The notes under the pieces were generated by a model. That model saw only the letters and a list, made by a program, of their open reading frames with translations. It was not told where the DNA came from and made no database searches. 64,000 bases of DNA, from assembly GCA_963713975.1 (NCBI GenBank), contig OY970218.1, positions 1,248,001 to 1,312,000 of the forward strand, read 5' to 3'. Origin of the DNA: an uncultured Chloroflexia bacterium. Lineage in GTDB: Bacteria; Chloroflexota; Limnocylindria; Limnocylindrales; CSP1-4. The stretch's first letter is position 1, and every line of letters begins with the position of its first letter. The position numbers and the translations under genes were made by a program. Positions 1,951 through 25,843 of this stretch are shown in pieces.

Positions 1951-1960
1951 GGGTGATCCT

Positions 1961-4116: not shown

Positions 4117-4130
4117 CGGATGGCGAATCG

Positions 4131-5466: not shown

Positions 5467-5490
5467 GGCGGGGCGACGAGCATGTCTCGG

Positions 5491-5991: not shown

Positions 5992-6032
5992 TCAACAAGG
6001 ATGCGCTTGCTGATGCCGGGTAGAGTCATCAC

Positions 6033-7156: not shown

Positions 7157-7735
7157 GTCATCGCGCAGCCCCGGGCTGCAGGCGCAAGCAGACTCCTGAT
7201 TGCCGAAGGGCGCAGCTGGTTTTCGCGACGCGCCCGGTCCGCCCGAGCGCCCCGGGGCGACGATCCGACTGACGGAGCCTCGGCTCTCTATCGCGGCCCA
7301 TCGTCCGGCCGAGTCACAGCCTTGTCGGAACCTTGACGGTCTCCTGACGGCCACTGGATGGACGCCCGATCGACCTCCGCCGACGATCGATGCCACGGCC
7401 GCCCCGCGTCCCCGGGCCCGGCCGCGTGGGGCTCGACGCCAACGATGACGAGGGCGCCTCAGGCTGGCCGCTGGACGGCCTCAAGATCGGCTCAAGTTGT
7501 GGGTGGACCTGCGGTCACCGGTCGGGTCTGAGGGCCTTCCTCGCCGGCTCGGACTCCTGCGCAGTGATCTCTCCGCGCGCGAACCGTTCGCCGAGGATCT
7601 GGCTCGGCTTTGGTCCCGACGAGCCTTGTAATGCTGGCCCACCGGCTCGTGAGGACGTCGTGACCAGCCGGAGGACGTGTCATGACTGGCCGTAACGTGG
7701 TCGACTCAGCTCCGCGCGGCTTGGCCAAATCACCT

Positions 7736-7785
7736 GTACACAATCTGGCTTGTCCAGCGACCACCCGCGGCCGATAGTGCGGGTA
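7736..7785 (+). promoter_or_regulatory. Leaderless promoter of the transfer operon with GTACAC box
   Basis: GTACAC(7736)-N8-TTGTCC-N17-GATAGT-N6-ATG. Confidence 0.6.
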
Positions 7786-10022
7786 TGCGCACCATCATCT
7801 CGGCACCACTCGCCGACTCCAGCCGGCTGACCATCCGGCGGCCTCAGGTCCGGCCGCCAGCACCGGCACCGCAGGGTCCGATTGCAGGTGTCACGGATGG
7901 CCAATTCCGGATCGATGGCCGGTATGTCGCTGGGTTCGAGCTCGGCCCGGTCAATCTCGAGCTCATGGCCGAGGCGGAGCGGGACGCGGCCCTCCAGTCC
8001 CTCGCCGCCTTCTACGACACGATCGCACGACCGTTCCAGCTCGTCTCGATCCCCGCCGAGCGGAGCCCGGACGACCACCTGGCGGCGATGGAGGCGCGGG
8101 CTGAGGGCAAGCGGATCGTACGGGCGTTCGCCGCGTATGCCGCGCTGTACCGCGAGATCGCCGCCGCGCCCCGGCGGCCCCTGCGACGGACGTACCTGCT
8201 GCTCGACGCGGCGAGCGAGCCCGAGCTGCGGCGGATGATGACGAGCCTTGCCCGCACGGCCGAGGAGCGGGGCGTGACCGCGCGCGAGGTCGAACCCGCG
8301 GAGCTCGGCGCGTTGTGGGCCACCGTCGGCCGGGCGGGGATCGAGCACCGGATCGGCGCGTCGGTGATCACTGGCGAGCGACTGCTGACGGCCCTCGTGC
8401 CGACCCGCCGCTGGCCGGCGGAGGTCGAGCCCGGCTGGCTGACCGAACTCCTCGCAGTCCAGGGGGTTGGCCCGGTCGCAATCCGCATCCGGCCGCTCGG
8501 GCGCGCCGAGGCGATGGCGTTCATGACGACGAGGCTCCGCCAGGTCCGGGCCGCCGACCGGCTGGCCGCTGAGCGGGGCGAGCTCGGCGACGTGGAGCGC
8601 GAACGGGTGGGCGACACGGCGACCGCTGCGAGGCGTTCGGTCCAGGCGGGCCGCGGCCGGATCTACCTCGCCGATGTGGTCCTGCTCCTCGAGGCGGATG
8701 ACCGCGCGAGCATGAACGAGCGGATCGAGTCGCTGCGGCTCGAGGGCCGGGGCACAGGGCTCGAGCTCGAGGTCGCCACGTTCCGGCTCGCCGACGCCTG
8801 GCGGGCGGCCCTGCCGGGTCCGGCACCGCGGCCGCTCGCCGAGCGCAACCTCGACTCAGGCTCGCTCGCCGCGTCGCTCCTCCACGCAGCGTCGGATCTG
8901 TACGAGCCGACGGGGCACCTGTACGGGCGGACCAAGACCAGCGGCGCGCCGATCGTGCTCGACCGGTTTGCCCACGCGAGCCACAACGCGATCGTGCTCG
9001 GCCAGACCGGGACCGGCAAGACGATGTTCACGGGCGCCGAGATGAGCCGCTGTCTCATCCGCGGGATCCGGGTGCTCGCGGTGGATCCGCTGGGCGACTA
9101 CCGCCGGCTGGCGGACGAGCTCGGTGGCACGTACCTCGATCTCGGCGCACCCGGCGTGGGCCTCAACCCGTTCGCGTTCACCGGTCCCGCGACCGATGGC
9201 GCGCTCACCGCCAAGATCGCTGCCCTCACGCGGCTCGCCGCCGCGATGGCCGGTGGCCTCTCCCGCGACGAGCGTCCTGCCCTCGACCGGGCCCTGCGCA
9301 CGACCTATGACGATGCAGGCATCGGCCCCGATCCGGCGTCGCTCGATCGGGAGCCGCCGACCCTCGCCCACCTCGTCGAGCGGCTCTCGGGGTTCGCCGA
9401 CGGTGCCCCGCTCGCGCACCGTCTCGAGCGCTGGGCGGCAGGGTCGCTCGCGCACCTGTTCGCCGGCGGTGCGGCGCTCCCGCTCGACCGGCGAATGCTC
9501 GTCATCGGCCTCGCCGCTCTCTCGGACCCCGAGGTGCGCTCGGTCGCCCAGCTGGCCGCGCTGGGGCTGCTGTGGGATGCCGTGCGGCGCGACCTTGCGC
9601 CCAAGCTCGTCGTCGTCGACGAGGCGTGGAAGGTGATGCGCCAGCCCGCGGGCGCCGAGTTCATCGAGGAGCTGGCCCGTTCGGCCCGCCACTACCACGC
9701 GGGGCTCCAGCTCGCGACCCAGGACATCGTCGAGTTCCTGCGCAGTGACTTCGGCGAGTCGATCGTCAAGCAGTCCGACCTGCGGGTCCTGCTGGGGCAG
9801 ACGCCCGAGGGCGCCGACGCACTCACCCGCTACTTCGACCTGACGCCCGCCGAGCGGCGCTCGCTCGTCCACGCCAGCCCGGGCGAGGGGCTGCTGTTCG
9901 TGGGGCGGAGCCACGTGGCCTTCGAGGCCTCGGTCTCTCGCCGCGAGTACGCGATGCTCACCACGCGACCAGCCGATCTGCTGGCAGACCCACACAGGTA
10001 CGCGCCACCCGATACCGGGTGA
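7785..10022 (+). CDS. VirB4-like type IV secretion ATPase
   Basis: Walker A GQTGTGKT, VDPLGDY, LNPF, Walker B VVVDEAW, ARSARHY, LATQ, PGEGLL. Confidence 0.92.
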   Translation: MRTIISAPLADSSRLTIRRPQVRPPAPAPQGPIAGVTDGQFRIDGRYVAGFELGPVNLELMAEAERDAALQSLAAFYDTIARPFQLVSIPAERSPDDHLAAMEARAEGKRIVRAFAAYAALYREIAAAPRRPLRRTYLLLDAASEPELRRMMTSLARTAEERGVTAREVEPAELGALWATVGRAGIEHRIGASVITGERLLTALVPTRRWPAEVEPGWLTELLAVQGVGPVAIRIRPLGRAEAMAFMTTRLRQVRAADRLAAERGELGDVERERVGDTATAARRSVQAGRGRIYLADVVLLLEADDRASMNERIESLRLEGRGTGLELEVATFRLADAWRAALPGPAPRPLAERNLDSGSLAASLLHAASDLYEPTGHLYGRTKTSGAPIVLDRFAHASHNAIVLGQTGTGKTMFTGAEMSRCLIRGIRVLAVDPLGDYRRLADELGGTYLDLGAPGVGLNPFAFTGPATDGALTAKIAALTRLAAAMAGGLSRDERPALDRALRTTYDDAGIGPDPASLDREPPTLAHLVERLSGFADGAPLAHRLERWAAGSLAHLFAGGAALPLDRRMLVIGLAALSDPEVRSVAQLAALGLLWDAVRRDLAPKLVVVDEAWKVMRQPAGAEFIEELARSARHYHAGLQLATQDIVEFLRSDFGESIVKQSDLRVLLGQTPEGADALTRYFDLTPAERRSLVHASPGEGLLFVGRSHVAFEASVSRREYAMLTTRPADLLADPHRYAPPDTG

Positions 10023-10972
10023 CCGCGCGGAGTGGCAGCGGTGCGGGCTGCGCCCTGGGCTGTGGCTGCGGCGGCCTGGTCATGGTCCTCGTTGCCGTCA
10101 TGGTCATGGGTGTCGCGGGCGCCCTCGCCGGCAGCTGGGCGGCGATGGCTGCTCCCTCGCCCGCCCGATCCGGCGATGCCGCCGCCATCCCGCCCGCGTA
10201 TCTCGCCCTCTACCAGGACGCGGCGGCCCGCTTCGAGCTCGACTGGGAGGTGCTGGCGGCGGTCGGGCGGGTCGAGACCAACCACGGGCGCAACCGCAAC
10301 GGGTGCGCGCCGAACTTTGCAGGCGCCCAGGGCCCGATGCAGTTCCTGCCGGCGACCTTCGCCCACGCTGCCAAGCTCGCCCACATCGCCGACCCCGACA
10401 TCTGCGATCCGGTCGACGCGATCCCGGCGGCCGCAGCGTACCTGCAGTCCAACGGCGCGCCGAAGCGCTGGGACCACGCCCTGTACCGGTACAACCCGGC
10501 CGACTGGTACCCGCCCCTCGTCATGGGCTGGGCCGTCCGCTACGGGTACGGCGCCTCGGTGGTGTGGCCCGCCGACGGGCGGATCTCCCAGCGCTTCGGC
10601 CCGACGAAGTTCACGGGCGAGCCGCCCCTCTGCTACGAGGGCACCTGCTACGCCCACTTCCACGACGGGCTCGACATCGCGGCACCGACAGGCACGCCAG
10701 TCCTCGCGATGGCGGCGGGGCGGGTCATCCTCGCGGGACGGGTGGCGGACGGCGCGGTCGTGGTGATGATCGACCACGGCGCGGGTGTCGAGACGCTGTA
10801 CGGCCACCTCGAGCCCGCGCTCGCGGTCAGCAAGGGCGACCAGGTCGCTGCGGGCCAGCTGCTCGGAACGGTGGGGCTCACCGGGCGTACGACCGGGCCG
10901 CACCTGCACTTCGAGCTGTGGCACGGGGCGAAGCCGATCGATCCGCTCACCATGCTCCCGGTGCGCCCGTGA
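10019..10972 (+). CDS. Lytic transglycosylase-M23 peptidase fusion (VirB1-like wall hydrolase)
   Basis: TM anchor; VETNHG, GAQGPMQF, ALYRYN; M23 motifs HDGLD, YGHL, TGPHLHFE. Confidence 0.92.
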   Translation: MTARSGSGAGCALGCGCGGLVMVLVAVMVMGVAGALAGSWAAMAAPSPARSGDAAAIPPAYLALYQDAAARFELDWEVLAAVGRVETNHGRNRNGCAPNFAGAQGPMQFLPATFAHAAKLAHIADPDICDPVDAIPAAAAYLQSNGAPKRWDHALYRYNPADWYPPLVMGWAVRYGYGASVVWPADGRISQRFGPTKFTGEPPLCYEGTCYAHFHDGLDIAAPTGTPVLAMAAGRVILAGRVADGAVVVMIDHGAGVETLYGHLEPALAVSKGDQVAAGQLLGTVGLTGRTTGPHLHFELWHGAKPIDPLTMLPVRP

Positions 10973-13341
10973 TCGTCGATCTCGGGTGGGTCGCAGGCTC
11001 GCTCGCATCGCTCGTGCCACTCGCCGCGGCGTTCGTGGGGCTCGCGCTCCTCTTCGTCCTCGTCCTGCGTCTCGTGCCCGTCGCGCGCCAGCGCGCCTAC
11101 GACCGGGTGTCGGCGCGGGAGACGGTCAGGCTCGTCGTCGCGCTGCCGGCGCGGGCCGCCGCCGACGCTGGGCTCGGGGTCGAGCTCATCCGGGCGCTCC
11201 ACCCCCGAGCACGTCGCGGCTTCGATGCCTGGCGCGTCGGCTGGCCGCGCATCGAGCTCCGGCTCGTCTGGCGCGATGGCTCCCTGGCCTTCGAGATCGA
11301 GACCAACAGCCAGGTCGCCGCCGTCGCCATGGCGCAGCTGCGCGCCCTGTATCCCGGGGTGGCCATCGAGACGACCGACGGTCGCGACCAACCCCCGGCC
11401 GCGACCGCGATCGGGCGGCTGGACGGCCCCCGGGGCTGGCCGCTGCGGGAGGTGGCGGCTCCCGAGGCCCGCATCCCCCGTGCCCTCGCCGCGGCGCTCG
11501 AGCATGCCCCCGCCGGTGCCGAGGTGCGGCTGCGGTGCGTCGCACGACCCGTGCCGCCCGAGGCCTGGCGGCGCGACCTCGGCGCCCCGGAGGATGCGAG
11601 CCCCGGATCGCTTCGATCCCTCATCGGGCGCGCGATCGTCGACGCCATCCTGCTCCGGCCGACCGCCGCGACCACGACTCAGTCTCCTGTCCGGACCTCG
11701 CCGGCAGAGCGTGAGGCCCAGGCCCGCAGACGCCGTGGCGTCGTCGGGTTCGACGTCGGCCTCCGCCTCGAGGTCGCGGGGATCGCAGGCCCGGCCGCCG
11801 AGGCGCTGCTGTGGCGGCTGGTCCATGTCACCGCCGAGCTCGACGACGGCCGCCAGGCGATCCGCTGGCAGATCCGGCGTGGCAGCGCCGGGGGAGCGCC
11901 CGCGGCGAGGCTCGCGGACTGGGAGCTCGCCCAGCTGTGGTCCCTGCCCGACGCGTCCTTCGACGAGGCCGGGTTCACTCGCGCGCGCCCGCTCGGGGCC
12001 GCGCCGCCGGCGTCGCCCGACGGCCTCGGGCTCGTGCTCGGCGAGAGCCGCGGTCGAGCGCTGGTGCTGCCCGCCGACGCCCTCGCCCGTCATCTGGCGG
12101 TGTTCGGCTCGACGGGATCGGGCAAGAGCACGCTCTTGCTCAACCTCGTGCTCGCACTGGCGGAATCGCCGATCGGGGCCACGGTCATCGATCCCCATGG
12201 CGACCTGACGACCGACATCCTCGAGCGGCTGCCCGAGAATGCGGCATCCAGGGTCCACGTCCTGCGGCTGGCCGATCGCGACCACCCGCGCGGGTTCAAC
12301 TTCCTCGAGCGCGCGTCGCCCGACGAGGCCCAGCTCGTGACGAGCGAGTTCGTCGAGCTGTTCGAGGACCTGTGGCCGAGGTTTTGCGGCCCCAAGATGC
12401 AGCACTACCTGCGGCACGCGCTCCTGACCCTGCTGGCTGCTCCTGAACCCGGGACGATCATCGAGCTCACCCGCATCCTGACCGACGACGCCTTCCGCGA
12501 GCCGTTGGTCGCCAAGGTCACCGACCCGCTCGTCGCCGCGTTCTGGCGGACCGAGTGGCCGGGGCCCAAGGAGCGCGAGCGCGACAGCTCGATCAAGGCG
12601 GTCCTCAACAAGCTCGGCGCCTTTGTGACCTATGCCTCGATCCGGAACGTGGTGGGGCAGGGGGTCTCGACGATCCGGCCGCGGGCGCTCATGGACCGGG
12701 GCGAGATCCTGCTCGTCGACCTCTCGGGCGTGGGCGGCGACAACGCGAACCTGTTCGGCGCGATGCTGATCAGCCGCTACCTGATCGACGCCACCGGGCG
12801 CCAGGGCACCCCGCGCGACCAGCGGCGCCAGCACGTGCTCGTGGTCGACGAGGCCCAGCGGTTCGACACGCGGGCGATGGGCAAGATCGCCGTGGAGGGT
12901 CGCAAGTTCGGCCTGGCCCTGGCGATCGCCTCGCAGTCGATGGGCGGCCTGGGGGAGCGGCTGCGCGAAACGGTCCTCACCAACGCCGCGTGCCTCGCGC
13001 TCCTCGCCCCGGGCGCCGACGACCTGCGCGGCCTCGGGCGCCTGGTGGCGCCGGTGTCGGTCGACGAGCTCAGCCGCATGCGCCGGTTCGAGGTGCTGCT
13101 CCGGATGCCCGGGCCCGACGGGCGCCCGGGTGTGTACGGCGGAACGGTCAGTGCACCTGGTCCGTCTGACCCTGCCACCGCGGCGGCGATCGTCGCACGG
13201 AGCGACGCGCGCGATGCGCGGCCGGTCGATGGGGTCCGCGCGGAGGTCCTCCGGCGGGCCGGCGGCGACGACGCGGTGCCCAGCAAGGCCGATGTCGCAA
13301 GCGCCGCACCGTCCGAGCAGCAACGCGGCCACCAGTCATGA
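10969..13341 (+). CDS. VirD4/TraD-like type IV coupling protein
   Basis: N-terminal TM, HLAVFGSTGSGKS, IDPHGDL, VVDEAQRF, EGRKFGL, ASQ. GTG overlaps the upstream stop. Confidence 0.9.
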   Translation: MIVDLGWVAGSLASLVPLAAAFVGLALLFVLVLRLVPVARQRAYDRVSARETVRLVVALPARAAADAGLGVELIRALHPRARRGFDAWRVGWPRIELRLVWRDGSLAFEIETNSQVAAVAMAQLRALYPGVAIETTDGRDQPPAATAIGRLDGPRGWPLREVAAPEARIPRALAAALEHAPAGAEVRLRCVARPVPPEAWRRDLGAPEDASPGSLRSLIGRAIVDAILLRPTAATTTQSPVRTSPAEREAQARRRRGVVGFDVGLRLEVAGIAGPAAEALLWRLVHVTAELDDGRQAIRWQIRRGSAGGAPAARLADWELAQLWSLPDASFDEAGFTRARPLGAAPPASPDGLGLVLGESRGRALVLPADALARHLAVFGSTGSGKSTLLLNLVLALAESPIGATVIDPHGDLTTDILERLPENAASRVHVLRLADRDHPRGFNFLERASPDEAQLVTSEFVELFEDLWPRFCGPKMQHYLRHALLTLLAAPEPGTIIELTRILTDDAFREPLVAKVTDPLVAAFWRTEWPGPKERERDSSIKAVLNKLGAFVTYASIRNVVGQGVSTIRPRALMDRGEILLVDLSGVGGDNANLFGAMLISRYLIDATGRQGTPRDQRRQHVLVVDEAQRFDTRAMGKIAVEGRKFGLALAIASQSMGGLGERLRETVLTNAACLALLAPGADDLRGLGRLVAPVSVDELSRMRRFEVLLRMPGPDGRPGVYGGTVSAPGPSDPATAAAIVARSDARDARPVDGVRAEVLRRAGGDDAVPSKADVASAAPSEQQRGHQS

Positions 13342-13356
13342 TCGGCCCGCTGACCG

Positions 13357-13410
13357 GGTGCGCCAGATGGGGCGCCAGATGGGGCGCCGAGACGCCCCTA
13401 TGGGCGCACC
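13357..13410. repeat. Tandem GCGCCAGATGGG repeats overlapping an imperfect inverted repeat (candidate nick region)
   Basis: 12-bp unit twice (13360-13383); arms GGTGCGCC-n4-GGGGCG and CGCCCC-n4-GGCGCACC. Function is inferred. Confidence 0.55.
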
Positions 13411-13453
13411 GATTCCGTGCTCGGGACGCGGGGTCACGGCGAAGGGACCTCAC

Positions 13454-14341
13454 GTGAGCGGACGCCGTGGACAGCCGGCCGCTGGCTCACGCACGCTCGG
13501 GGTCGACCTCGATGCCCTCCCGATCGCGGACAAGGCCGCCCTGCGCCTCCTCATCCGCGCCGATGCCGCCACCGCCTCACAGCTTGCCCGCCTCATCTAC
13601 CGCCGCGAGCGAACCGCCCAGGACCGGCTCCTCGAGCTCTGGCGCACAGGCGCGCTCGAACGATCCACCGACCCCCGCTCCGGCCGAGGAACCGCCACCC
13701 TGGCATACCGCACAAGCCAGATGACCCGAGCACACCTCGGCATTCGCGAGCCGCGTGCCAGCAGTTTGTACCTCCGCCACACCCTCGACATCGTCGAAGC
13801 CGTGTGCGCGCTCGCCGCTCCCGATCCGGCGGACGCACCTCGCGCGGTCCAGGCCTGGCTCACCGAGCGGATGAGCGCAGACCTGCCGGGTCCCGGGATC
13901 AGACCCGACAGCGTCGTCGCCCTGCAGGTGGGTGCACGCTCCGCCGTCCTGTGCCTCGAGATGGACGAGGGGACCCAGCACGCCCCGGTCATCCGGGCCC
14001 GCCTTGCCGCCTACGGCCGTTGGCTGCCCACGCGCGCCGGCTGGCACCTGCTGTTCGTCGTCCAGAGCGAGCAACGCACCCGCTGGTTGCGCCGCCTGGG
14101 GTCCTGGCATGGCCCGGCGTCGCTCGAAGGCCGGTCATGGGTCGTGCGGCTGGCCGACGTCCGCTCCGATGGACTCGACGCGCTGGCGGTGCCCATCGTC
14201 GGCGTGGAGTCAGCCGTGCCGGTCAGTGGCCTCACCCGGGATCCCGCCTCCCGTGAGTCCGCTGCGCCCGTAGGGTCGAACGCCTGGATCGAGCTCCTGG
14301 GCCAAGGCGGCGGTGAGGACCTCAGCCACGCGCTCCGATGA
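13454..14341 (+). CDS. Replication-relaxation (Replic_Relax) family protein
   Basis: N-terminal wHTH-like region, LRHTLD, IRPDSVV, LEMDEGT (PD-(D/E)xK-like core); follows the coupling protein gene. Confidence 0.82.
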   Translation: MSGRRGQPAAGSRTLGVDLDALPIADKAALRLLIRADAATASQLARLIYRRERTAQDRLLELWRTGALERSTDPRSGRGTATLAYRTSQMTRAHLGIREPRASSLYLRHTLDIVEAVCALAAPDPADAPRAVQAWLTERMSADLPGPGIRPDSVVALQVGARSAVLCLEMDEGTQHAPVIRARLAAYGRWLPTRAGWHLLFVVQSEQRTRWLRRLGSWHGPASLEGRSWVVRLADVRSDGLDALAVPIVGVESAVPVSGLTRDPASRESAAPVGSNAWIELLGQGGGEDLSHALR

Positions 14342-14457
14342 CGCAGGGGAGCCCATGTGCTCGACGGGAACCTCGAGACCGGCGGAATGCCCTCTGGACG
14401 GCCGGCTCGGACAACCGTTCTCAAGACCGGACATCGGTTACAGCTCTTGCTGGCCTC

Positions 14458-16107
14458 TCATGGTCTCGCAGTGCCATGTACCGAGGCCTCGCGGATCAAG
14501 TCAGCCTCCGCCTGCTCGTCGGACAGGGGCTCGTAGGCCATCGCCTTGCAATACTCGTCGAAGCTCCAGCGGGCGAAGCTCGCGGCGAGGTAAGGGAACT
14601 GCTCGCTCGACTCCTCTGCGTACTCGGTGCGCGGGATCGCGTGCTGGTCGTGCAGCGGGTGGCGACAGCGCACGACGACGTAGTCCCCCAGAGCCGCCCA
14701 GTCGCCGTGCAGCGCGGAGCCCGCCGGGATCATGACCGAGTGGTACATGTCCTCCAGCCCAACCTCACGCGACATGTCAAGAAGTCCCTTGTCAGCGGCA
14801 AAGGTGCCCGCGGTGCTGATGTCCTGGAAGTCCTCGGAGACGCCGCGATTCACGTCCGCGCGCAGCTTCGGCAGGAGCCGCTCGAGGATCGCGTGCGGCT
14901 CCCCCTCGGTCCGACCGATAACCTCCTCCGTGTGGAGCATCAAGGCCTTGGTCCGCCCGCGACCGAAATTCTTGAACTCGTCCCAGATCGCCGGCCGCGA
15001 GCTCTCCACCGACAACATCCACTTCAGCTGCACGTAAGCTTCGAAGAGCGACCGGACGGACGGATAGCCGTGCTCCTCGGACCAGAGGGCCGGATGTGAC
15101 ACGAGATGGGCTGCGACCCTCAGAGCGCGCCAGACCACTCCCGTGAGGACGTCGTAGCGATCGTGGTTCCAGATGTCCGGGTCGATGTCGGCCGCCGCCC
15201 GCAGGAATTGGTAGTGCAGCCGGTACAGACGGGCAGCTCCCTGCGCGAGATGGTCCTGATCAGGGGGTGAAGCCTCGCCAGCCGGGACAGTGAGGCAGCG
15301 GAACAGGCGCCCGTTGGCGCGCCAGAACCGCTCGCACCACGCGCCGCCCGCTAGTGAGCCCTCGAGTTCTGCGGCCTGGAAGGAGAGGAACGACGCCCGG
15401 AGTGTCGTCTCGGCGAGCTTCCGCTCACCTTCGCTCACAGGGTTCTCGTAGTTGCGAAGCGCCTTGAAGCCGGGGTCGTCAGGGTGGAAGGAGATCCGCT
15501 GCGTCATGACCATGCCGCGGAGCCAAAGGTAGATGGCGTCGGTCGCGAGTTCCTGGTGCGAGTCGCCGCCGAGGCGCATCGTTTCCCAGAGGTGTTCCTC
15601 TGCTTCGACCAGGTCCGGCACGAGTCCGGCGTCGAAGTGGGGTTGGGCGAGCCATCGACCCGGCGCGTCGTCGTACGCGGCCAGGACGTGGGCGAGCGGC
15701 TCGGGCGAGATGGCGTCATAGATGCCAAGCCGCCTGAACTCGTCCACCAACTCGTTGCGCTCCCGGTCCGGGACACGCTCCCAGTCGGTCAGAAGGCCGT
15801 GGAAGACCGGCTCGCGGTCGCCGCCAAGCGCACCGCGTTCGTGGGCCCTATGGAAGGCGGCTTGCCCTGCATCCAGCGCCTGCGTCGTAGCGCCGCGGGC
15901 GAGGGGCCGGAGGCGAAGCATGGTCAGGAGCCACAGGAAGTCCGGAAAGGCAACCTTCCGGAATGGCCGCAAGGTGGGCGGGATCGGCAGATTGAGCATC
16001 GGCGGGACATGTCGCGTACCCAGCCGGTAGTGGCCGCGGAACGGAGACGGCCGGGATCCGCGATTCGACTTGCGCGAGTCCGCGTCCATCCCATCCATTT
16101 GGAACAT
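14458..16107 (-). CDS. DUF5677-like protein (start may be 15999)
   Basis: C-terminal RSLFEAYVQLKWM and Y...SALHGDW pattern; long ORF. Confidence 0.65.
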   Translation of the reverse strand: MFQMDGMDADSRKSNRGSRPSPFRGHYRLGTRHVPPMLNLPIPPTLRPFRKVAFPDFLWLLTMLRLRPLARGATTQALDAGQAAFHRAHERGALGGDREPVFHGLLTDWERVPDRERNELVDEFRRLGIYDAISPEPLAHVLAAYDDAPGRWLAQPHFDAGLVPDLVEAEEHLWETMRLGGDSHQELATDAIYLWLRGMVMTQRISFHPDDPGFKALRNYENPVSEGERKLAETTLRASFLSFQAAELEGSLAGGAWCERFWRANGRLFRCLTVPAGEASPPDQDHLAQGAARLYRLHYQFLRAAADIDPDIWNHDRYDVLTGVVWRALRVAAHLVSHPALWSEEHGYPSVRSLFEAYVQLKWMLSVESSRPAIWDEFKNFGRGRTKALMLHTEEVIGRTEGEPHAILERLLPKLRADVNRGVSEDFQDISTAGTFAADKGLLDMSREVGLEDMYHSVMIPAGSALHGDWAALGDYVVVRCRHPLHDQHAIPRTEYAEESSEQFPYLAASFARWSFDEYCKAMAYEPLSDEQAEADLIREASVHGTARP

Positions 16108-16409
16108 GATGCCGTACGGGCCACCAAGGGCGAACGCGGGTGCCAGAGATCAGCGCAGCCGTGGCAAGGACGGCCATTGGCTGCTTGACGACCGCGAACA
16201 GCATGCCAGTAGTGCCGACGCACGCGAGTGCTTTGACAATGATCCAGAGGTATCCGATCAGGACCTACTTGTCCGTTGCGGCGCATCGTCAATCCAGCGA
16301 GGGTGGGTCAGCGCGGGCTCGGGCAGGGGGCGTTCAACTCGTACACCCAGGGTGACCCGGTGAGGCTCGTTGGCCAAAGGTGCCCCTCGTCCATCGGGAC
16401 TCTGCAAGG

Positions 16410-16470
16410 GTACACAAACACGTACACATATAGCATTGACCATGCTGCAGACCGAGCGCATCGTGCCCTT
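16410..16470 (+). promoter_or_regulatory. Promoter of the structured leader/Ubl operon with GTACAC-N6-GTACAC
   Basis: GTACAC(16410)-N6-GTACAC-N8-TTGACC-N17-CATCGT-N6; predicted +1 at 16471. Confidence 0.65.
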
Positions 16471-17090
16471 GGGCGACTGAGGCCAGTGGATGCGTACCTG
16501 AGTGCTTCAGTCGCCCGCCACGTTCGATGGTCGAACGGGCAGCGGGCTCCCCGGCACGAGCTCCCACGGCGGTTGCCGTGACCAGGCCAGCGCCGGCGTC
16601 GGGATCCTCTGGGATCTGCGGCGACTGAAGCACCTTACCAACCACATAGCGCTGCCAATCGCGCGCTCTTCGATGCGTGCGATCGCGCGAGGCGTGCCCG
16701 CCACCAGGGCGTGGGCGGAGTCCGACCGGGGGTCGGTCGTCGCGAGGAATTCTCCTCGACGATCCGCAACTCGGTCGTGTTCCGTCCTCGTTGGGCGCGG
16801 CACGACCGGTTTCGGTTCGTTCGGGCGTTGCTCGTCGACGGCTCGTCGTTCCTGGTCGGGACTCTCTCTCACGTTCGGGTGGCGGACGACATCCGCGCCG
16901 GAATGGAGGTGATGCCCCGAAGGGGTTCGATGACGTCGGCGGCCTGCGCGCCCGCCGGTGTTCGCAACTGTTGCGCACCAAAGGACAGGGGCCGATCCTC
17001 GCCGATCGCATCAAGACGGCAGGACGCCGCGCCTGCCTTCGTCTGCCCCGGTCCGCTTGTCATGCGGCGTTCGTTCCACATGGAGGTTTC
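16471..17090 (+). ncRNA. Putative ~620-nt structured leader RNA or ssDNA structure; family not recognised
   Basis: No convincing ORF. About a dozen consecutive hairpins; competing 13-bp and 14-bp helices; the first helix starts at the predicted +1. Confidence 0.5.
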
Positions 17091-17093
17091 ACC

Positions 17094-17333
17094 GTGCAGA
17101 CGATGCAAGACGCCGAGACGACGAGGGTCGTGTACGGCGTCAACGAGCTCGAACTCGACCTGGCCGGCAAGACGGTCCACGGGATCTGGAAGGCCCTCGA
17201 ACAGGTCTTCAATATCCCGCGCGACGCGGTCATCACGGTCAACGGATCCCGGACCGACGACGAGTACGTCGTGCGCCCGGGCGACGAGATCGAATTCCAG
17301 AAGGCAGCCGGCGTGAAGGGCCAGGCGGTCTGA
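17094..17333 (+). CDS. Ubiquitin-like (beta-grasp, ThiS/MoaD-like) protein
   Basis: 79 aa after a GGAGG RBS; VITVNG, VVRPGDEIEFQKAAGVKG then QAV. Confidence 0.88.
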   Translation: MQTMQDAETTRVVYGVNELELDLAGKTVHGIWKALEQVFNIPRDAVITVNGSRTDDEYVVRPGDEIEFQKAAGVKGQAV

Positions 17334-17357
17334 CACGCGGGCTTCGGCCACACCTGC

Positions 17358-17409
17358 AGGGACTCCTGGGTCCGGCGACGCCCAAGCGGCGTGCCGGGCC
17401 CGGGGCCCT
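17358..17409 (+). other. Long G-U-rich stem-loop between the Ubl and E2 genes
   Basis: 13-bp stem with three G-U pairs plus inner and outer helices; preceded by a GGC-TTCG-GCC tetraloop. Confidence 0.6.
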
Positions 17410-17448
17410 TTGGGTCACCGAAACGCCTCAGAAAGGAGCTCACGCAAC

Positions 17449-18219
17449 ATGCAGTCGCGCACGTACCTGCGCATCGAAGGCGATCTGGTGAGCCTGATCA
17501 GCGAGGTCATCGACCGTGAGGTCGCGCTTCCGGATCTCCTGGCCGAGCTCACCACCAACCAAGTTCAGCTGAGCCCGAGGCTGCCAACCGGCTGCCGCTT
17601 CTGGTTCCGTGCCGGGTCGACGGGCCGTACGGTCTTCGTCACCGAGCAGGCCCCGATGCGGCGGACGATCGAGTACCAGACGAGCCGGCGACCGGCGGGC
17701 GAGCCGATCACGTATCGGATCGCCCTGCCGTACGTCGTGTTCGTGGTCTCGACCTATGGCGAGCAGATCGAGGGCCTCGCGACCTACTTCCGACCGGCGC
17801 CCCTGCGCTCGATCGACGATGGGCTGTGCTGCTCGACCCTGCCGAACACGGACGACGATGGGACCGTCTGTCTCGGCTCGGTCAGGGTCAGCGGCGCCAC
17901 CGTTGGCGAACGCGTGGACGCCCTCGTCGGTGCGTTCTGGGCGAGTCGCTTCAATCAGGACCTGCGACGCCATCCGCTCTCGTTCCCCGGTGGCTTCCGG
18001 GCCTGGGCGGCTCGTTCGCGACGGGATCCCCTCGCGGCCCTCTCGATGGCCTACGACCCCTATTGGCGGACCCTCCGCCAGGTCACAGCGCAGATGGCCG
18101 GCGTGGCTCCCACGGACCTGCCGGCGGTCACGCCGATCCCCAGCGAGGCGCCCGAGACCGACGTCCGGACGCCAGACCCGGTGGTCGAGGGAGGTGAGGC
18201 AGATGACCTCGCTGCCTGA
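17449..18219 (+). CDS. Prokaryotic E2-like protein (Prok-E2 family D / PRTRC protein B-like)
   Basis: IALPYVVF, LPNTDDDGTVCLG with putative catalytic Cys, FWASRFN; AAGGAG RBS. Confidence 0.8.
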   Translation: MQSRTYLRIEGDLVSLISEVIDREVALPDLLAELTTNQVQLSPRLPTGCRFWFRAGSTGRTVFVTEQAPMRRTIEYQTSRRPAGEPITYRIALPYVVFVVSTYGEQIEGLATYFRPAPLRSIDDGLCCSTLPNTDDDGTVCLGSVRVSGATVGERVDALVGAFWASRFNQDLRRHPLSFPGGFRAWAARSRRDPLAALSMAYDPYWRTLRQVTAQMAGVAPTDLPAVTPIPSEAPETDVRTPDPVVEGGEADDLAA

Positions 18220-18466
18220 CACCATCCGGGGACTGCCGGTCGCCCGACCGAGCGATCTCGGGAGCCTGCTGGCGCCGCATCTCAGGGTCGCCGATCCTGA
18301 GAACCCGCTCGTCGGGCTCGAAGCGTCGGCCCTGGCGATCGCGGTGGCGATCCTCAAGGCATCCGGACGAGTCCTGCGCGAGGAGCTGACCCGCGAGCGA
18401 TCGCGGTCCCGCGAACTCGAGCACCTCGTCTACCGCCTGCCGGTGGCCGAGCGGGAGGGGGACTGA
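18203..18466 (+). CDS. Hypothetical 87-aa protein within the Ubl operon
   Basis: GGAGG RBS; overlaps the E2 stop and ends 1 nt before the JAB ATG. Confidence 0.7.
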   Translation: MTSLPDTIRGLPVARPSDLGSLLAPHLRVADPENPLVGLEASALAIAVAILKASGRVLREELTRERSRSRELEHLVYRLPVAEREGD

Positions 18467-18467
18467 C

Positions 18468-19301
18468 ATGTTCCCGATCCTTCCTGCGGGCTCACCGGCG
18501 GCGGCCGACACCTCGCTGCCGGCCTTCCTCGTCGCCCATGACGGGCTGTATCTGCGCAAGCGGAGCCTGCTCGGTGTGAGCCAGACGAGGGTCAATGGGG
18601 CCGAGCATCTGCCCCCTGCGACGGAGTACGTCGAGTACGCGCTGCCGAGGATCTCAGCGGACCAGATGGCCCGCGTCGTCGGCTTCTTCCGCTCCATCTA
18701 CCGGGCGCAGCGGACCGAGGCGCTCGTCCTCCTGCTCTGGGCGGGCGAGGGCTTCGAGCTGTTCGTCCCGGACCAGAAGGTGAGCCCCGCCTCGGTGAGC
18801 CACACGCTCGACGCGGCGAGACTGCCGGCCGGATCCCGCGTCGTCGGGTCGATCCACTCTCACGGTGCCTTCGGCGCCCCGGCGAGTGCGATCGACGAAG
18901 ACGACGAGGCGGAGTTCGACGGGCTGCACATCGTCGTCGGGCGCTTCGATCGGCGTCCGTCCTATTCGGCGGCCATCGCCGTCGACGGACGCCGCTTCCG
19001 TATTCCAGTGGCCGATGTCCTGGAACGGCCCCGGAGGCTCGTCGAGCCGCCGGAGGAGTGGTGTCAGCGAGTGACACTCCTGCCGCCGCCGCGGCCGTCG
19101 AAGGACAAGGGCCACCGACCCTCGTCCACCGGCGCTCCGGTGCCGCTCCCTCATCGAGGGGCCCACCGGGTCAGCCGCGTCGATCTCGACGTGGCGCTCG
19201 CCCGGGCGGATGGCCTGGCCTCACAGCTTGGGCTCCACCTCAGCTTCTCGCTCGCCCCGGTCTCCGGGTCGGGTCGGAAGGTGGGTGGCGCCGATGCCTG
19301 A
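18468..19301 (+). CDS. JAB/JAMM (MPN) metallo-isopeptidase
   Basis: TEAL...GSIHSHGAFGAPASAID matches E-xn-HSH-x7-S-x2-D. Confidence 0.9.
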   Translation: MFPILPAGSPAAADTSLPAFLVAHDGLYLRKRSLLGVSQTRVNGAEHLPPATEYVEYALPRISADQMARVVGFFRSIYRAQRTEALVLLLWAGEGFELFVPDQKVSPASVSHTLDAARLPAGSRVVGSIHSHGAFGAPASAIDEDDEAEFDGLHIVVGRFDRRPSYSAAIAVDGRRFRIPVADVLERPRRLVEPPEEWCQRVTLLPPPRPSKDKGHRPSSTGAPVPLPHRGAHRVSRVDLDVALARADGLASQLGLHLSFSLAPVSGSGRKVGGADA

Positions 19302-19995
19302 CCGGGTCGTGCTCATCGGCCTCGGCGGCATCGGGAGCCAGCTCGCACCCTCGCTCGTCCGATACCTCTCATTCCGCCCGGAGCCGCGCCCGCTCCTGGT
19401 CCTCGTCGACGGTGACGCCTACGAGATCTCGAACCGGTCGCGGCAACTCTTCCCCGATGACGCCCTGGGCACGAACAAGGCCGAGGCCTTGGCCCAGGTG
19501 TTCCGCGGGGGTGGGCTTGCGGTCCAGGCGATCGCCGGGTACGTGAGCGCCGACAACGTCGGGCTCGTCGTCCGCGAAGGGGACGTCTGTCTCCTCGCGG
19601 TCGACAACCACCCGACGCGGGCGCTCGTCGACCGGCACATCGCCGCTCTTTCGGACGTGACGCTCATCAGCGGTGGCAACGACGAGACGGACGGCAACGT
19701 CCAGCTCGTCCGTCGCCGCGACGGGTACAGCGTCGATGGCCACCTGGTCGAGATCCACCCGGAGATCGGCCAGGCGGCAGGTGCAGACGTCATGCCGGGT
19801 ACCGGCTGTGCGGCCCTCGCGCCCATTCGGCCCCAGCTCGTCGTGACCAATCTGATGGTCGCAAGCGCGATGCTCAACTGCCTCTGGGCGGTCACCGAGC
19901 AGGGCAGCGTCCCCTACAGCGAGGTCTACCTCGACGTGGTCCATAACGCGGCGCGTAGCCGCAGCTGGCTCCGCGTCCAGGACGGCGCGCAGTAG
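19294..19995 (+). CDS. ThiF/E1-like adenylyltransferase
   Basis: IGLGGIGS, VDGD, SNRSRQ, NKAEAL, AVDN, GCAAL...QLVVTN; no Zn-binding CxxC pairs. Confidence 0.92.
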   Translation: MPDRVVLIGLGGIGSQLAPSLVRYLSFRPEPRPLLVLVDGDAYEISNRSRQLFPDDALGTNKAEALAQVFRGGGLAVQAIAGYVSADNVGLVVREGDVCLLAVDNHPTRALVDRHIAALSDVTLISGGNDETDGNVQLVRRRDGYSVDGHLVEIHPEIGQAAGADVMPGTGCAALAPIRPQLVVTNLMVASAMLNCLWAVTEQGSVPYSEVYLDVVHNAARSRSWLRVQDGAQ

Positions 19996-20239
19996 GGGAA
20001 TGTGGAGTCAACAGGTGCAATAGCCTGCCGGGGATGCGCCATGCGGCGCTCCCCGGCCGAACCATCTCTGCGGCTCGAAGTGCTGGAGCTGTGGTCAGGG
20101 CGTCTATGTGCGATCCGGCCCCGACGGCCTCCGCTACCTCCTCCAGGAGGTCGACCTGCCAGTCATCGAGGCTGCCTGGGCGGAGTCCAACGCCCGGGAC
20201 TAGACGCGCACCCACTCAGGCGCAGCTGACACTCCCGCC

Positions 20240-20764
20240 ATGACAGCGGCGACCATGTTCACGATCGGCTACCAGGGCTCGTCCCTAGAACACCTGATCG
20301 ACGCGCTCGCGGCCGCGGACGTCTCGGTGCTCGTGGACACCCGCGAGACGCCGATGAGCCGGCGGGCCGAGTTCCGACCCAAGATGCTCCAGGCGGCGCT
20401 CGCCGAGGCTGGCATTGAGTACCGCTCCATCCGAGCGCTCGGTGCGCCGAAGGCGCTGCGGGCTCTGGCGACGGACGACTGGGTCAGGTTCGCTGACGGC
20501 TACCGCGAGCGCCTACTCCTCGCCCGGGAAGAGCTCCATGACCTGGTGCCCCTGATCGAGACCGAGCGCGTCTGCCTGCTCTGCTTCGAGGCCGACCCCG
20601 AAGCCTGCCACCGGTCGCTGCTCGCCCATGAGATCCAGGGACTCCTGGACGAAGCCGCCGTCCATCACCTTCGGCCGGGGCGGCCGGACGAGGCCGATGA
20701 TCTCGAACGTGCGGCGCCGCTTGGCGAGGTTGCCAACCACGAAGTGCAGGTCGCGGGCCGGTAG
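20240..20764 (+). CDS. DUF488 family protein
   Basis: FTIGYQG, LVDTRETPMSR, CLLCFE, CHRS. Confidence 0.9.
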   Translation: MTAATMFTIGYQGSSLEHLIDALAAADVSVLVDTRETPMSRRAEFRPKMLQAALAEAGIEYRSIRALGAPKALRALATDDWVRFADGYRERLLLAREELHDLVPLIETERVCLLCFEADPEACHRSLLAHEIQGLLDEAAVHHLRPGRPDEADDLERAAPLGEVANHEVQVAGR

Positions 20765-21448
20765 CTCGATCTCGTACCGCTCGCGAAGCTTCTCCTCCCA
20801 GCGGTCACCGTACTCGCGCACCCACCGGCGGTACGACTCGCCGATCTCCCAGTCGAGGATCCCGATCTCGTGGCCACGACAGCGGTCGTCGTTGCAGGTG
20901 AACTCGTAGGCGAACGACCACGGGATCTGCTCGAGGTCGGCGAGCTCGGCCAGCTCGGTCTCGCCCAGGCCAAGGCGTTGCTGGAGCAGCGCCGCGCGCT
21001 GGCGCTCACTCCACGGCTTCGCCTTCCGCTTCACGAGACGCGTGATCTCCTTTGGCCGGAACATGCCGAGGCTGGTCCCGTCTCGGCGCTGCGCTTCCTG
21101 GATCGCCTCGAGCGAGCGTGCCGGGGGCGGCAGCAGGGCCATCCGCCTTCGCCAGCCGCGGTCGCCAGCGGGCATCGGCCCGTCGAGGAGTGCGATCGTG
21201 TCTTGGTCGACATGGAGGCTCTCCGGGCGGTTGTCGCCGCGGGGTCGGCCGACGACACAGGTGATGACCTGGTACTTCGCGAACCTCTTGTCCGCGAGCC
21301 GGCGGAATGTGACCGGGTACATCCGCACCCACGACCGGGAGTCGAGGTCGACGCCAGCGCAGCAGACGGTCTCGACGTACGACTGGCTGGGGTTGGGATA
21401 CGTCTTGACAACGACCAGGATCCGCCGCTTCGGTGCCCCTGGAATCAC
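20513..21448 (-). CDS. Conserved hypothetical protein (KTYP...ETVCxAG family, possibly OB-fold)
   Basis: VKTYPNPS..YVETVCCAG, WVRMYP, DNRPES, LDWEIG, FEIIGL; AGGAGG RBS before GTG 21448. Confidence 0.78.
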   Translation of the reverse strand: MIPGAPKRRILVVVKTYPNPSQSYVETVCCAGVDLDSRSWVRMYPVTFRRLADKRFAKYQVITCVVGRPRGDNRPESLHVDQDTIALLDGPMPAGDRGWRRRMALLPPPARSLEAIQEAQRRDGTSLGMFRPKEITRLVKRKAKPWSERQRAALLQQRLGLGETELAELADLEQIPWSFAYEFTCNDDRCRGHEIGILDWEIGESYRRWVREYGDRWEEKLRERYEIELPARDLHFVVGNLAKRRRTFEIIGLVRPPRPKVMDGGFVQESLDLMGEQRPVAGFGVGLEAEQADALGLDQGHQVMELFPGEE

Positions 21449-22143
21449 GCCCACCTCCTATCGACGGTGCGAGCCACCATGGGCTCCAGAGTAGGGCCGC
21501 CGGCGGCCGCTCTGCCTCGAGATCGATCCAGCGAGCACCTTCGCTCGGAACTGGTCGTCGCGTCGAAGACGCTTGATGAAGCAACGGCCGCGACGTGCTC
21601 GGCAAGTTGCCGCCGTCGATCCGCCAGGATGGCGTCCGCCTGAGCTGATCCAGCCTGGGGATCGTCGCGCAGATGTACAGGCACAGGCGCGAACATGCGA
21701 TCCATGATCAGCCCGCCGCGCTCGGCGTCCGCTCCTGACGCCGGCCCATTGTGCTCCTCGGCCATGCTGAAGTTGGACGCGCCCGCAGGTGCTGCGCAGG
21801 TTCTCCATCGCAGTGGAATCTCCTGCGATGTGGTCGATTTCGGGCGCGGGATCTCCGCAGATCACGCACCTGTGCTCGTCCCGGCTGAAGACCTGTTCCC
21901 GGATCGTTGCAGGCCCCGGCGCTGGGTCTCGTGGTAGCCGCCGGCGAGGATGTGGGCGAGCCTCCTCCGCCAGGCATCCTCGATCCTCGGATCCGCTAGC
22001 CAGCGGCCGTCGGCGATGGTGGCGCGCGCATAGCGAATCAGCTTGACCGTCTGGCGGCACGCGGGCGAGCAGTAGAGCTTGGCCCGGCCCGTGAGCTCGA
22101 TCGGCGCACCGCACTCGACGCACTCGACGACGACCGGTCGCAT
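21445..22143 (-). pseudogene. Frameshifted zinc-binding HNH endonuclease
   Basis: Split over three frames: CVECG...YCSPAC, then VFSRDEHRCVICG...EIDHI...ENLRSTC, then a C-terminal piece. Confidence 0.7.
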
Positions 22144-22474
22144 GAGGTCGTCCACGACCGTGATCACTCGAGCGTCGAGTCCTGGTTCCACGTGCTCATA
22201 GTCGCGGACCACGGACGAGGCGGAAAGGGCGCGGAAGTACCAACGCGCCGACGGCGCCGGAGAGACATCCCGCAGAGGCACGGCGCGGAAGCGCGCGCAA
22301 TCTTCCTCACCTCCTGCCCCCTGTCAAGGGACAGGTGAATCTGGACGGAGACGGTCACGAGATCTGGACGCTGGCGGACGCCGGAGCTGGACGCTGGCGG
22401 CCATGAGAACTGGACACCGTCCGTTCTCTCTCCCTCGGTGACGCTGAGTGGAGTCGCGCTGCGTCCAGCGGGCG

Positions 22475-24858: not shown

Positions 24859-25843
24859 GTCCCTCCTCTGCTCACCCTGGGTTGTCTCAGCAACCCCCAG
24901 CGTGCGTGGGGAGGGACGCTTGATGTTCACGGTGTCCGTGAGGGGACCGTGGGGCGGGCTGTCCAGATCGCGTGGCCGGCGGCGTTCAGATCTCGTGGCC
25001 GCCGGCGTCCAGCTTCCTGTCCGCCTGCGTCCAGATTCCCATGGCCGCTGTCACCCCCGGCCACCGTCGGTCGAGATCCCGAGCGCGATCCAGCTGTGGG
25101 ACCGAGCTCTCGATTGGATGTACACGAATACGTACGCGCCCCGAAGGGGCCGCTGAGCCTCGTCTTCCCCGGCAACTCCTAGTCACAACCTATTCAATCT
25201 CCAGGAGATTCATCTGGGGGGCTACAGGGAACGCCGCAGCCTCTCGCGGTAGCTGGTGCTCGACCGGGCCCACAGGGACAACGGCGAGCCACTCGGTCAC
25301 AGGCTGTAGCTGGGTCAGGGCGGCCAGGACGCGGTGCAAGTCGTAGGTCCGGCCTGCCGACCGCGGGCGCCGCGGTCACCGGAAGCTCCCGATGACACGA
25401 GGCTTGGGCGGCGGGGGTGGTTCGAGCATGGCCATGGCGATCGCGCGGACCATCGCGCCCGCCGCGGTGTTCAGTTCGACCCGCGACGAGCCGGCACCTG
25501 TCTGTGCGCGACCGTTGGGGTCAACTTCCTCGTCACGCCGGCGACGCTCCTGCACGCGCGGATTGGCGCGGTCAGCGGTATGGGGCCGTCGGTCGTGAAC
25601 GCCGTGGCTCCGTCAGCATCCGCGTGACGGCTCGGGCCGAGCGCTGGGGGCAAGGTCCCCGCCGCTGCGGACGGAAGCGCATGCGCTTCCCGATCGGGGA
25701 CCCGTCGGAGCGTGGGCAACCGACGGCGCACCTGCTCTGGGAGCTGGCGGCCCCGTGCGGGCAGGGCCGCGACCCTGAGCGTTGGACGTCCAGCGGTGCG
25801 GGCGTCGACGATCGTGCGCTTCGGAGCACACGAGTGTCCTGCA

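Follow-up and report, generated by a model that had tools for sequence, protein, structure and literature searches.

What does a ubiquitin-like conjugation operon do on a bacterial mobile element? The question is raised by a locus from an uncultured soil Chloroflexia bacterium (Limnocylindrales; assembly GCA_963713975.1, contig OY970218.1), whose genome is a single contig of 3.62 Mb. The window, meaning the whole stretch of DNA that was analysed, comprises 64,000 nucleotides (nt; positions 1,248,001 to 1,312,000) and is rich in GC (66-75%). An initial annotation, made from the letters of the sequence, had described here a complete operon for a ubiquitin-like protein (Ubl), an E2-like protein, a small protein X, a JAB peptidase and an E1-like enzyme, and had seen it as wired into the backbone of an integrative conjugative element. 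The reading favoured here, held with about even confidence, is that these genes form a functional module for ubiquitin-like protein conjugation, which Chloroflexota integrative (conjugative) elements carry as a separable accessory unit and which acts together with an ATPase on the island's own life. The unit comprises a promoter, a leader RNA, the genes Ubl-E2-X-JAB-E1 and the ATPase gene. It is separable from the transfer genes and is located at the recombinase end of integrative elements. Its parts in the window are the following.

16410-16464, forward strand: promoter-like region, with GTACAC-N6-GTACAC at 16410-16427, TTGACC at 16436-16441, a 17-nt spacer and CATCGT at 16459-16464
16471-17093, forward strand: structured 5' leader RNA of about 620 nt, with a paired core at about 16512-17062
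17094-17333, forward strand: Ubl precursor of 79 amino acids (aa), with a GTG start 7 nt past GGAGG
17449-18219, forward strand: E2-like conjugating enzyme of 256 aa, with Cys141
18203-18466, forward strand: X, 87 aa, fast-evolving and predicted to be helical
18468-19301, forward strand: JAB/JAMM metallopeptidase of 277 aa
19294-19995, forward strand: E1-like adenylating enzyme of 233 aa, with a single ThiF-type domain
20028-20056, forward strand: GC-rich hairpin behind the E1 gene, kept in relatives through compensatory changes
53914-55068, forward strand: AAA_16 ATPase with a C-terminal winged helix-turn-helix (wHTH; DUF7342) by Pfam, with a likely TTG start at 53914

The five open reading frames (ORFs) of the operon, including the extra 87-aa gene, were all recovered intact where the initial annotation had placed them, by the ORF listing and by third-position GC, which is high in each of them. 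The E1 gene likely starts at the ATG at 19294 and not at 19210. The description of five tightly coupled genes applies to four of them: E2 and X overlap by 17 nt, X stops at 18466 and the ATG of JAB lies at 18468, and JAB and E1 overlap by 8 nt. The Ubl gene is separated from E2 by 115 nt, so it does not share this coupling. A C-terminal "GG-x-AD" common to E2 and JAB was rejected as a motif; it reflects the ribosome-binding site and start codon of the overlapping next gene.

The encoded motifs give good support to the chemistry of a Ubl conjugation cascade. The Ubl falls just below the Pfam ThiS cut-off (21.9 bits vs 22.5; E 2.6e-4). Its AlphaFold2 (AF2) model, with a mean confidence (predicted local distance difference test, pLDDT) of 75, has the order beta-beta-alpha-beta-beta, and its best matches in the Protein Data Bank (PDB) are NEDD8, Urm1, archaeal ubiquitin, ISG15 and MoaD, with template-modelling (TM) scores of 0.6-0.68. 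The protein ends in AGVKG followed by QAV. Fold, structural matches and sequence thus bear out the beta-grasp protein ending in GVKG-QAV that had been reported. An invariant AGVKG with a variable tail is found in 61 of 64 related Ubl ORFs (not de-duplicated): 55 have a tail of three residues, five a tail of one, and one reads through. None ends at the Gly, and the remaining three are broken or masked.

The E2-like protein matches Pfam Prok-E2_D (PF14460; E 7.6e-5), with 22.9 bits against a gathering cut-off of 25. The same family is assigned to relatives of 69-81% identity, and six of 20 more distant relatives reach 25-30.4 bits. Relatives of 58-90% identity retain the motif LPNTxDDGxVCLG, and 14/14 of them have P132, N133 and C141 unchanged. 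N133 and C141 are conserved at 90% or more across 53 E2 sequences, down to 22% identity. The active-site loop LPNTDDDGTVCLG agrees with the pattern PN-x(4-5)-G-x-(I/V)-C-L, as expected from the PNxxxxGxVCLG first noticed in this protein. The AF2 model (pLDDT 84) consists of an N-terminal beta-hairpin/helix extension (residues 1-36), a UBC-like core (about 40-205) and a disordered tail. The model was compared by VIA-align with 48,161 chains in a wide, unbiased scan. Of the 28 best chains, 27 are E2, UEV or UBC-like proteins, and only the one at rank 16 (Fts-Hook3-FHIP1B) is not; the matches cover model residues 40-205, with Z of 3.8-4.9 and a root-mean-square deviation that is mostly 4-5 A across 101-129 residues. 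No match came from a profile search of PDB sequences. On this model-based evidence, a divergent E2 fold is supported but not proven. Many distant relatives (P0153-P0260) are 350-860 aa long and carry the E2-like part in the centre or at the C-terminus; in the N-terminal part of one of them, P0163, there is a weak EI24/CysZ-like membrane domain.

In the peptidase, an N-terminal domain precedes the JAMM core, and a variable linker leads from the core to a conserved C-terminal helix. The zinc site E...H-x-H-x7-S-x2-D is present, and E84, H130-S-H132, S140 and D143 are invariant in 30/30 sequences, in agreement with the JAMM peptidase first described. It scores 22.1 bits for Pfam Prok-JAB, under the cut-off of 25, and its nearest solved sequences, AfJAMM and Rpn11, are reached only at E of about 0.1-0.5. 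A possible sliding-clamp-binding motif near its C-terminus, QLGLHL, was rejected; it is unconserved, relatives have LGYRLS, and the Gln varies. The E1-like enzyme is a clear ThiF protein (PF00899; 2.8e-16, 59.8 bits vs a cut-off of 28.1) with the nucleotide-binding GLGGIG (GxGxxG), and its best solved relative is MoeB (E 7e-4). Cys172 is present in 45/45 sequences. The enzyme has three Cys in total and, as the claimed lack of Zn sites implies, no CxxC, and the Pfam scan found no rhodanese domain.

Protein X, whose gene is translationally coupled to E2 and JAB, evolves much faster than its neighbours. The ORF of 85-92 aa that lies between those two genes is represented by 44 distinct versions; a further four are aberrant (frameshifted or reading into JAB), and those of L066 and L069 may be errors, since both come from metagenome-assembled genomes (MAGs) of one assembly series. 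In a 32-sequence alignment, identity to the window copy is 26-87%. M1, L4 and A43 are invariant, and P25, R59, F69, L72 and P80 are conserved at 90% or more. No family match was obtained for X in Pfam, NCBIfam or PADLOC, and an atlas search gave an uninformative best score of 0.85. A complex prediction of E2 and JAB with X as partner scored 0.00 in two runs and is uninformative on binding.

The constant partners of the cassette are the leader RNA and the gene for the AAA_16 ATPase with wHTH. About 690 nt upstream of the Ubl gene are conserved in 54 loci, and this stretch opens with the promoter-like motif. RNAalifold on 20 leader sequences gave 113 pairs in 23 helices, and, with structure and covariation counts taken from one and the same alignment, 97.0% of cells were paired, vs 34-44% when partners were slid by 1-3 columns, and 27 pairs showed double-sided changes, vs 2-8 when slid; 0/500 shuffles reached the observed values. 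The long structured leader that had been noticed in the sequence is thereby confirmed. Frequent G-U pairs place the fold on the forward (sense) strand. A coding frame in the leader was rejected because its substitutions show no 3-base periodicity, and GGAGGTGATG was rejected as a start site, being conserved but paired within the fold. No Rfam match was found at E<=1 on either strand of 15800-20400. A leader profile search of the genome found one copy, at the expected place, and 63/72 loci carry a copy that ends at Ubl. Nine loci have no leader: L011, which is a distant E2 match, L019, and seven whose sequence starts at or within Ubl or E2. In L056 (8117-8643 and 9253-9668), L071 (4562-5081 and 5748-6008) and L051 (4440-4622), another leader copy, partial or tandem, lies upstream of the first.

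The promoter-like motif, a GTACAC direct repeat followed by a TTGACC-like hexamer, has exact copies in the window at 16410 and at 53799. With at most one mismatch, the GTACAC repeat was found 38 times in 1.14 Mb of related loci; 29 of these copies are no more than 900 nt upstream of Ubl, and in the 900 nt before the ATPase gene the motif occurs only once. The initial annotation had regarded the motif as shared with the transfer and integrase operons. It does stand before the ATPase and recombinase genes, but that copy lies inside an insertion specific to the window, and upstream of VirB4 there is only a single half-site, at 7736. Repeats of GTACAC/GTACGC type are also present at 25120-25137, by the end of an IS21 element, and at 33314-33346, within the cargo. 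A generic scan for sigma-70 promoters and terminators over 5400-20400 found no promoter in this GC-rich DNA, the motif at 16410 included; its only terminator-like site is on the minus strand inside E1.

Expression of the operon has moderate support from RNA-library contigs. Contigs from four metatranscriptome runs of four studies, placed at 85% identity or more and derived from close relatives, span 16471 to about 20034, and one of 1225 nt bridges the leader, Ubl and E2. Contigs from three studies start at 16471, 16481 and 16482, that is, 7-18 nt past the -10-like hexamer, which gives weak support to the start site. Positions 16200-16333 and 20086-20200 were left uncovered. These gaps are no evidence of transcript ends on the 3' side, since relatives diverge there.

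The link to the ATPase emerged from related loci. Among 59 loci picked by their match to E2, 57 come from Chloroflexota MAGs, and five are from Limnocylindria or Limnocylindrales. All four core genes are present in 48 of the 59, and the misses fall at locus ends, except in L019, which lacks Ubl. The ATPase gene is found downstream of E1 in 41 loci. As the 59 loci had been chosen by E2, searches from the ATPase and the coupling protein were added. The linkage is reciprocal: in 400 genomes of the class, the ATPase matched in nine other genomes, and JAB-E1 lay directly upstream in 7/7 assessable loci (of the two others, one is at a contig end and one is a fragment). In relatives the ATPase starts about 90 nt past the E1 stop, with the hairpin in between and about 30-40 nt from the hairpin to the ATPase. 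Most relatives (about 40 loci) also have a conserved box GTGTGGA-N4-6-CAGGTGCACAAC between the E1 stop and the hairpin, at 19996-20027 in the window. The initial annotation missed this link because an insertion of 33.8 kb separates the ATPase from the cassette here. A search of PDB sequences with the ATPase gave no match. The element TTGAAACAATTGTCACAAAC at 53914 was rejected as an operator; it consists of the first ATPase codons, just upstream of the NPFRPG motif.

The connection with transfer genes is looser. Upstream of the cassette, a coupling-protein or relaxase match was found in 23 of the 59 loci; 19 have at least 9 kb of upstream DNA without a match, and 17 have short flanks. A recombinase match is present in ten loci; in five of these (L026, L041, L043, L050, L056) the ATPase gene is its immediate upstream neighbour. 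The coupling-protein search gave matches in 33 other genomes (three unpublished ones among them, which were left out of the further analysis), with 20 places at 52% identity or more. Four were dropped (one in an unpublished genome, three on short contigs), which leaves 16: seven with the cassette downstream on the same contig, seven without it in at least 15 kb, and two too short. In three of the seven cassette-free places the recombinase directly follows the relaxase. Of five genomes in which the cassette has no transfer block close by, three gave no match to a VirB4 query, and a fourth gave only a remnant of 40 residues. The proposed neighbourhood survey thus gave a mixed answer. The module does lie between a relaxase (about 13400-14341) and a serine recombinase (55408-56943) on an integrative conjugative element, and both kinds of gene recur beside it in relatives, but it is not wired into the transfer machinery. 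Since the backbone is found with and without the cassette and VirB4 is missed in three of five genomes, transfer control as the core job is unlikely.

The cassette is patchily distributed. It was found in 10/400 other genomes of a phylum sample and in 0/3 of the same genus, and a tblastn search of 72,556 plasmid records with E2 gave no match. Two MAGs carry four divergent loci each, and another carries three; each copy is on its own island.

The surroundings of the module in the window include the following features.

7785-10022, forward strand: VirB4-like ATPase of the CD1110 family (5.5e-56), at the start of the transfer block (7785-14341)
10019-10972, forward strand: SLT+M23 hydrolase of the transfer block
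about 11050-13341, forward strand: FtsK/HerA-type coupling protein of the transfer block
about 13400-14341, forward strand: Replic_Relax relaxase, at the end of the transfer block
14458-16107, reverse strand: DitA-like DUF5677 gene (PADLOC DitA, 5.1e-27)
20069-53892, no strand assigned: 33.8-kb insertion that splits the module, with a PDC-M19A/B-like pair, IS21, regulators and genes for carbohydrate/polyol catabolism
20240-21454, convergent and overlapping: DUF488 gene and a gene for a 313-aa protein (PADLOC PDC-M19A 1.8e-30, PDC-M19B 2.7e-48)
53799-53860, forward strand: second operator/promoter-like motif, inside the right end of the insertion
55408-56943, forward strand: large serine recombinase, the putative element integrase, with a Resolvase domain and a weak CcrB match

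The DitA-like gene occupies a variable spot between relaxase and leader and is found in 0/59 related loci. DNA homology to L016, L017, L019, L061 and L072 ends at about 20057-20076 and returns at 53893-53903; the insertion begins exactly 12 nt after the hairpin. L014 and L030 diverge at the same point with different DNA, which marks it as a recurrent insertion spot for cargo. BLAST of the right end of the insertion against related loci gave no long match. The IS21 genes istA/istB are flanked by imperfect inverted repeats of 39-56 nt (22322-22392, 24961-25053). Genes for a BlaI-type repressor and an M48 peptidase lie just upstream of VirB4, at 6033-7156; this MecR1/BlaR1-like sensor pair could regulate the element. 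Directly past the recombinase, at about 57260-57882, a FitA-like ribbon-helix-helix antitoxin domain and a PIN-domain gene may form a toxin-antitoxin pair at the element end. Direct repeats between 1-7800 and 56900-60500, looked for as marks of the element's ends, reach at most 15 nt. The reported absence of a nearby ParB was confirmed. No PRTRC-type ParB (the ParB-related ThiF-related cassette, PRTRC, is treated below) was found in the window (1.248-1.312 Mb) or in the Pfam scans, and the two ParB-like matches of the genome are sub-threshold and lie at 1.03 Mb and 3.37 Mb, both over 200 kb distant.

How the parts might work together can be outlined. A promoter with a GTACAC direct-repeat operator would drive an mRNA that opens with the folded leader of about 620 nt, and the leader probably gates expression. 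The Ubl would be made as a precursor of 79 aa, from which the JAMM peptidase would cut the three residues that follow Gly76. E1, which has a single domain and probably forms a homodimer like MoeB/ThiF, would adenylate Gly76 and take over the Ubl as a thioester on Cys172. From there it would move to Cys141 of E2 and then to lysines of one or more targets, from which the JAMM peptidase could also strip it. X may be an accessory subunit that serves as either a specificity or a regulatory factor. In relatives the operon appears to run on into the ATPase-wHTH gene, and often into the serine recombinase. Because it does so about 90 nt after E1, tagging and the ATPase are taken to act together, and the DNA-bound NTPase and the tagging may serve establishment, maintenance or recombination control of the island. 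As the Ubl ends in K-G, trypsin should leave a single-Gly remnant on targets. A further step would make the leader a new class of large structured regulatory RNA, gating a tagging system that decides with the AAA_16 ATPase when the recombinase acts; this is speculative and improbable at present. If true, it would be the first example of ubiquitin-like signalling that governs how a bacterial mobile element lives and spreads its stages, and not of defence against viruses.

Which alternatives compete with an element-centred tagging module? The most serious rival is defence cargo against phages or plasmids, in which an invader protein would be tagged in the manner of Bil systems, with the AAA_16 (STAND/KAP-like) ATPase as a sensor or partner; this is possible, though we do not think it probable. 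It gains from the weak match of E1 to the PADLOC BilD model (3.6e-8, in the adenylation domain) and to CBASS (cyclic-oligonucleotide-based antiphage signalling system) E1-E2 models, and from type II Bil Ubl precursors, which share a conserved Gly with a variable tail trimmed by the JAB enzyme, according to the part of the source available (PMC10557695). The atlas search of the ATPase returned only generic clusters carrying AAA_16, KAP_NTPase, BrxC_BrxD or nSTAND1, and defence-like genes are present on both sides of the module, the DitA-like gene at 14458-16107 and the PDC-M19A/B-like pair at 20240-21454. The patchy distribution and the occurrence of the transfer backbone with and without the module also suit a cargo. 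However, these defence-like neighbours differ in every locus, while the place of the module by the recombinase end is fixed and comes with a conserved operator and the 620-nt leader of its own. At E<=0.1, Ubl, X and JAB were without a match in PADLOC (2023 library), and E2 had only a chance-level one (0.059, to PglX). A genome can carry as many as four divergent copies on separate islands, which would be unusual for a defence system. The initial annotation had preferred a module for establishment or anti-defence, expressed early after transfer and tagging proteins of the new host. Its position just downstream of the relaxase gene, with one variable spot between, the operator-type promoter, and the plasmids and conjugative elements that carry the related class 6d/PRTRC cassettes, as described in the available text (PMC1779556), speak for such a role. 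Against it, the G-U pairs place the leader fold on the sense strand, so that the leader is no single-strand promoter of the transferred template strand, and the VirB4 results given above do not tie the cassette to transfer. This reading is regarded as rather unlikely.

A sulfur-carrier pathway of the ThiS/MoaD, CysO-Mec or QbsCDE type, with the Ubl thiocarboxylated and not conjugated, is very improbable. The best Pfam match of the Ubl is ThiS, the best matches of E1 are ThiF and MoeB, and a tailed sulfur carrier trimmed by a JAMM enzyme is known from QbsD/QbsE. Yet the operon includes an E2-like protein with an invariant Cys, the Ubl ends in VKG plus a tail and not in GG, E1 has neither rhodanese domain nor CxxC zinc site, and no gene for a thiazole, molybdopterin or cysteine synthase turned up within the module or next to it in Pfam scans of 56 window ORF translations. 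That the set tags proteins and does not serve sulfur transfer, as proposed from the start along with the lack of adjacent thiamine or Moco genes, is therefore well supported.

Several points weigh against the favoured reading, in which a tagging module acts with its ATPase on the life of the island. To our knowledge, the characterised bacterial E1/E2/JAB systems (Bil, CBASS Cap2/Cap3) are all antiviral, and defence-like cargo flanks the module here. The transfer backbone lacks the module in 7/16 places, so the module is dispensable for that element family. The check for an E2 fold in 17449-18219, favourable in the ranking of chains, was less so in absolute terms (Z<5), and Foldseek of the E2 model against the PDB returned nothing at E<=1e-3. 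RNA libraries can contain DNA, and their contigs cannot fix transcript ends. The analysis shows intact genes, their motifs, folds and linkage, the leader fold and the presence of the operon in RNA libraries. We infer the enzymatic steps and their targets, what X does and what the system is for, and with them the element-centred role; read-through from E1 into the ATPase gene is suggested by spacing alone. In this clade the system is compact, well conserved and naturally expressed, and it comes with a constant DNA-binding NTPase as partner and a large leader supported by covariation. Its study could show what protein tagging does for mobile DNA and could add a new long structured RNA to the short list of such RNAs. 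Neither the leader RNA nor the ATPase partner appears to have been described in print.

Is the set a known system under another guise? The hallmarks of sulfur-carrier systems, namely a GG end of the carrier, an E1 with CxxC and adjacent synthase genes, are all absent here. The CBASS Cap2/Cap3, Bub and 6A-MBL systems share E1, E2 and JAB-type chemistry, and Cap2, a CdnG-associated E2 and BubCD turn up as weaker matches when structures are compared with the E2 model (Z 3.1-3.5). These systems have fused E1-E2 proteins or other peptidases, and CD-NTase (cGAS/DncV-like nucleotidyltransferase) or metallo-beta-lactamase (MBL) partners, none of which is present here. Bil operons, as far as the available parts of the sources describe them, resemble the window operon in the order Ubl-E2-(X)-JAB-E1, in the precursor Ubl and in the expected thioester relay from E1 to E2 (PMC10557695; 10.1101/2023.09.04.556158). 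In contrast, the same text gives BilD as a two-domain E1 (inactive and active adenylation domains, IAD+AAD) with a mobile Cys domain (PMC10557695), whereas the window E1 has 233 aa and one domain. PADLOC found no BilA, BilB or BilC match, and gene X, the leader RNA and the ATPase partner are extra here.

The gene set best fits operon class 6d of Iyer et al. 2006, a predicted class (PMC1779556); the comparison extends to the accessible part of that paper. Class 6d unites a Ubl, a JAB, an E1-like and an E2-like protein and a rapidly diverging alpha-helical protein in one operon, a gene content that the window operon has. Further likenesses are an E2 without the His of HPN (LPN here), residence on mobile elements and a JAB with an extra N-terminal domain. 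The 6d E2 has a conserved His C-terminal to the catalytic Cys (PMC1779556); H175 of the window E2 is invariant in 14/14 close relatives, but outside the columns conserved at 90% or more in the 53-sequence alignment. The 6d JAB has an N-terminal alpha+beta domain marked by conserved Arg and Trp (PMC1779556), and the window JAB has an N-terminal extension of about 80 residues with R30 and W91 invariant, set beside the 6d Arg and Trp by description only. The class as presented there differs in three respects: Chloroflexota is not among the listed hosts, X of the window has only 87 aa with R59 as its sole charged residue conserved at 90% or more, and neither a 620-nt leader nor an AAA_16-wHTH partner is described for it. 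Literature searches (supplements outside their scope) found, among the papers listed, no experimental work on the function of class 6d or PRTRC.

PRTRC cassettes (NCBIfam TIGR03734-03742) are the other close comparison. In NCBIfam, E2 is matched best by PRTRC_B and JAB by PRTRC_A, and for E1 the model PRTRC_ThiF comes second. The scores, however, are far below the cut-offs: 24.1 vs 131.45 bits for E2 (TIGR03737), 21.8 vs 101.8 for JAB (TIGR03735) and 47.7 vs 144.75 for E1 (TIGR03736), and 0/25 nearest E2 relatives reach the PRTRC_B cut-off. The Ubl has no PRTRC_C match; its sole NCBIfam match at E<=0.1 is MoaD (0.055). Given these sub-cut-off scores, the lack of a ParB gene (TIGR03734) and a PADLOC result limited to a weak BilD match, the set is related to PRTRC without being a member, and it is not Bil, in line with the initial annotation, which had seen no ParB or other PRTRC partners nearby. 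In both PRTRC and the window module a Ubl tagging kit is tied to a DNA-binding NTPase on mobile DNA, with the AAA_16 ATPase in the role of ParB. By analogy, the module may be a chromosomal-island parallel to the ParB-linked PRTRC cassettes of plasmids.

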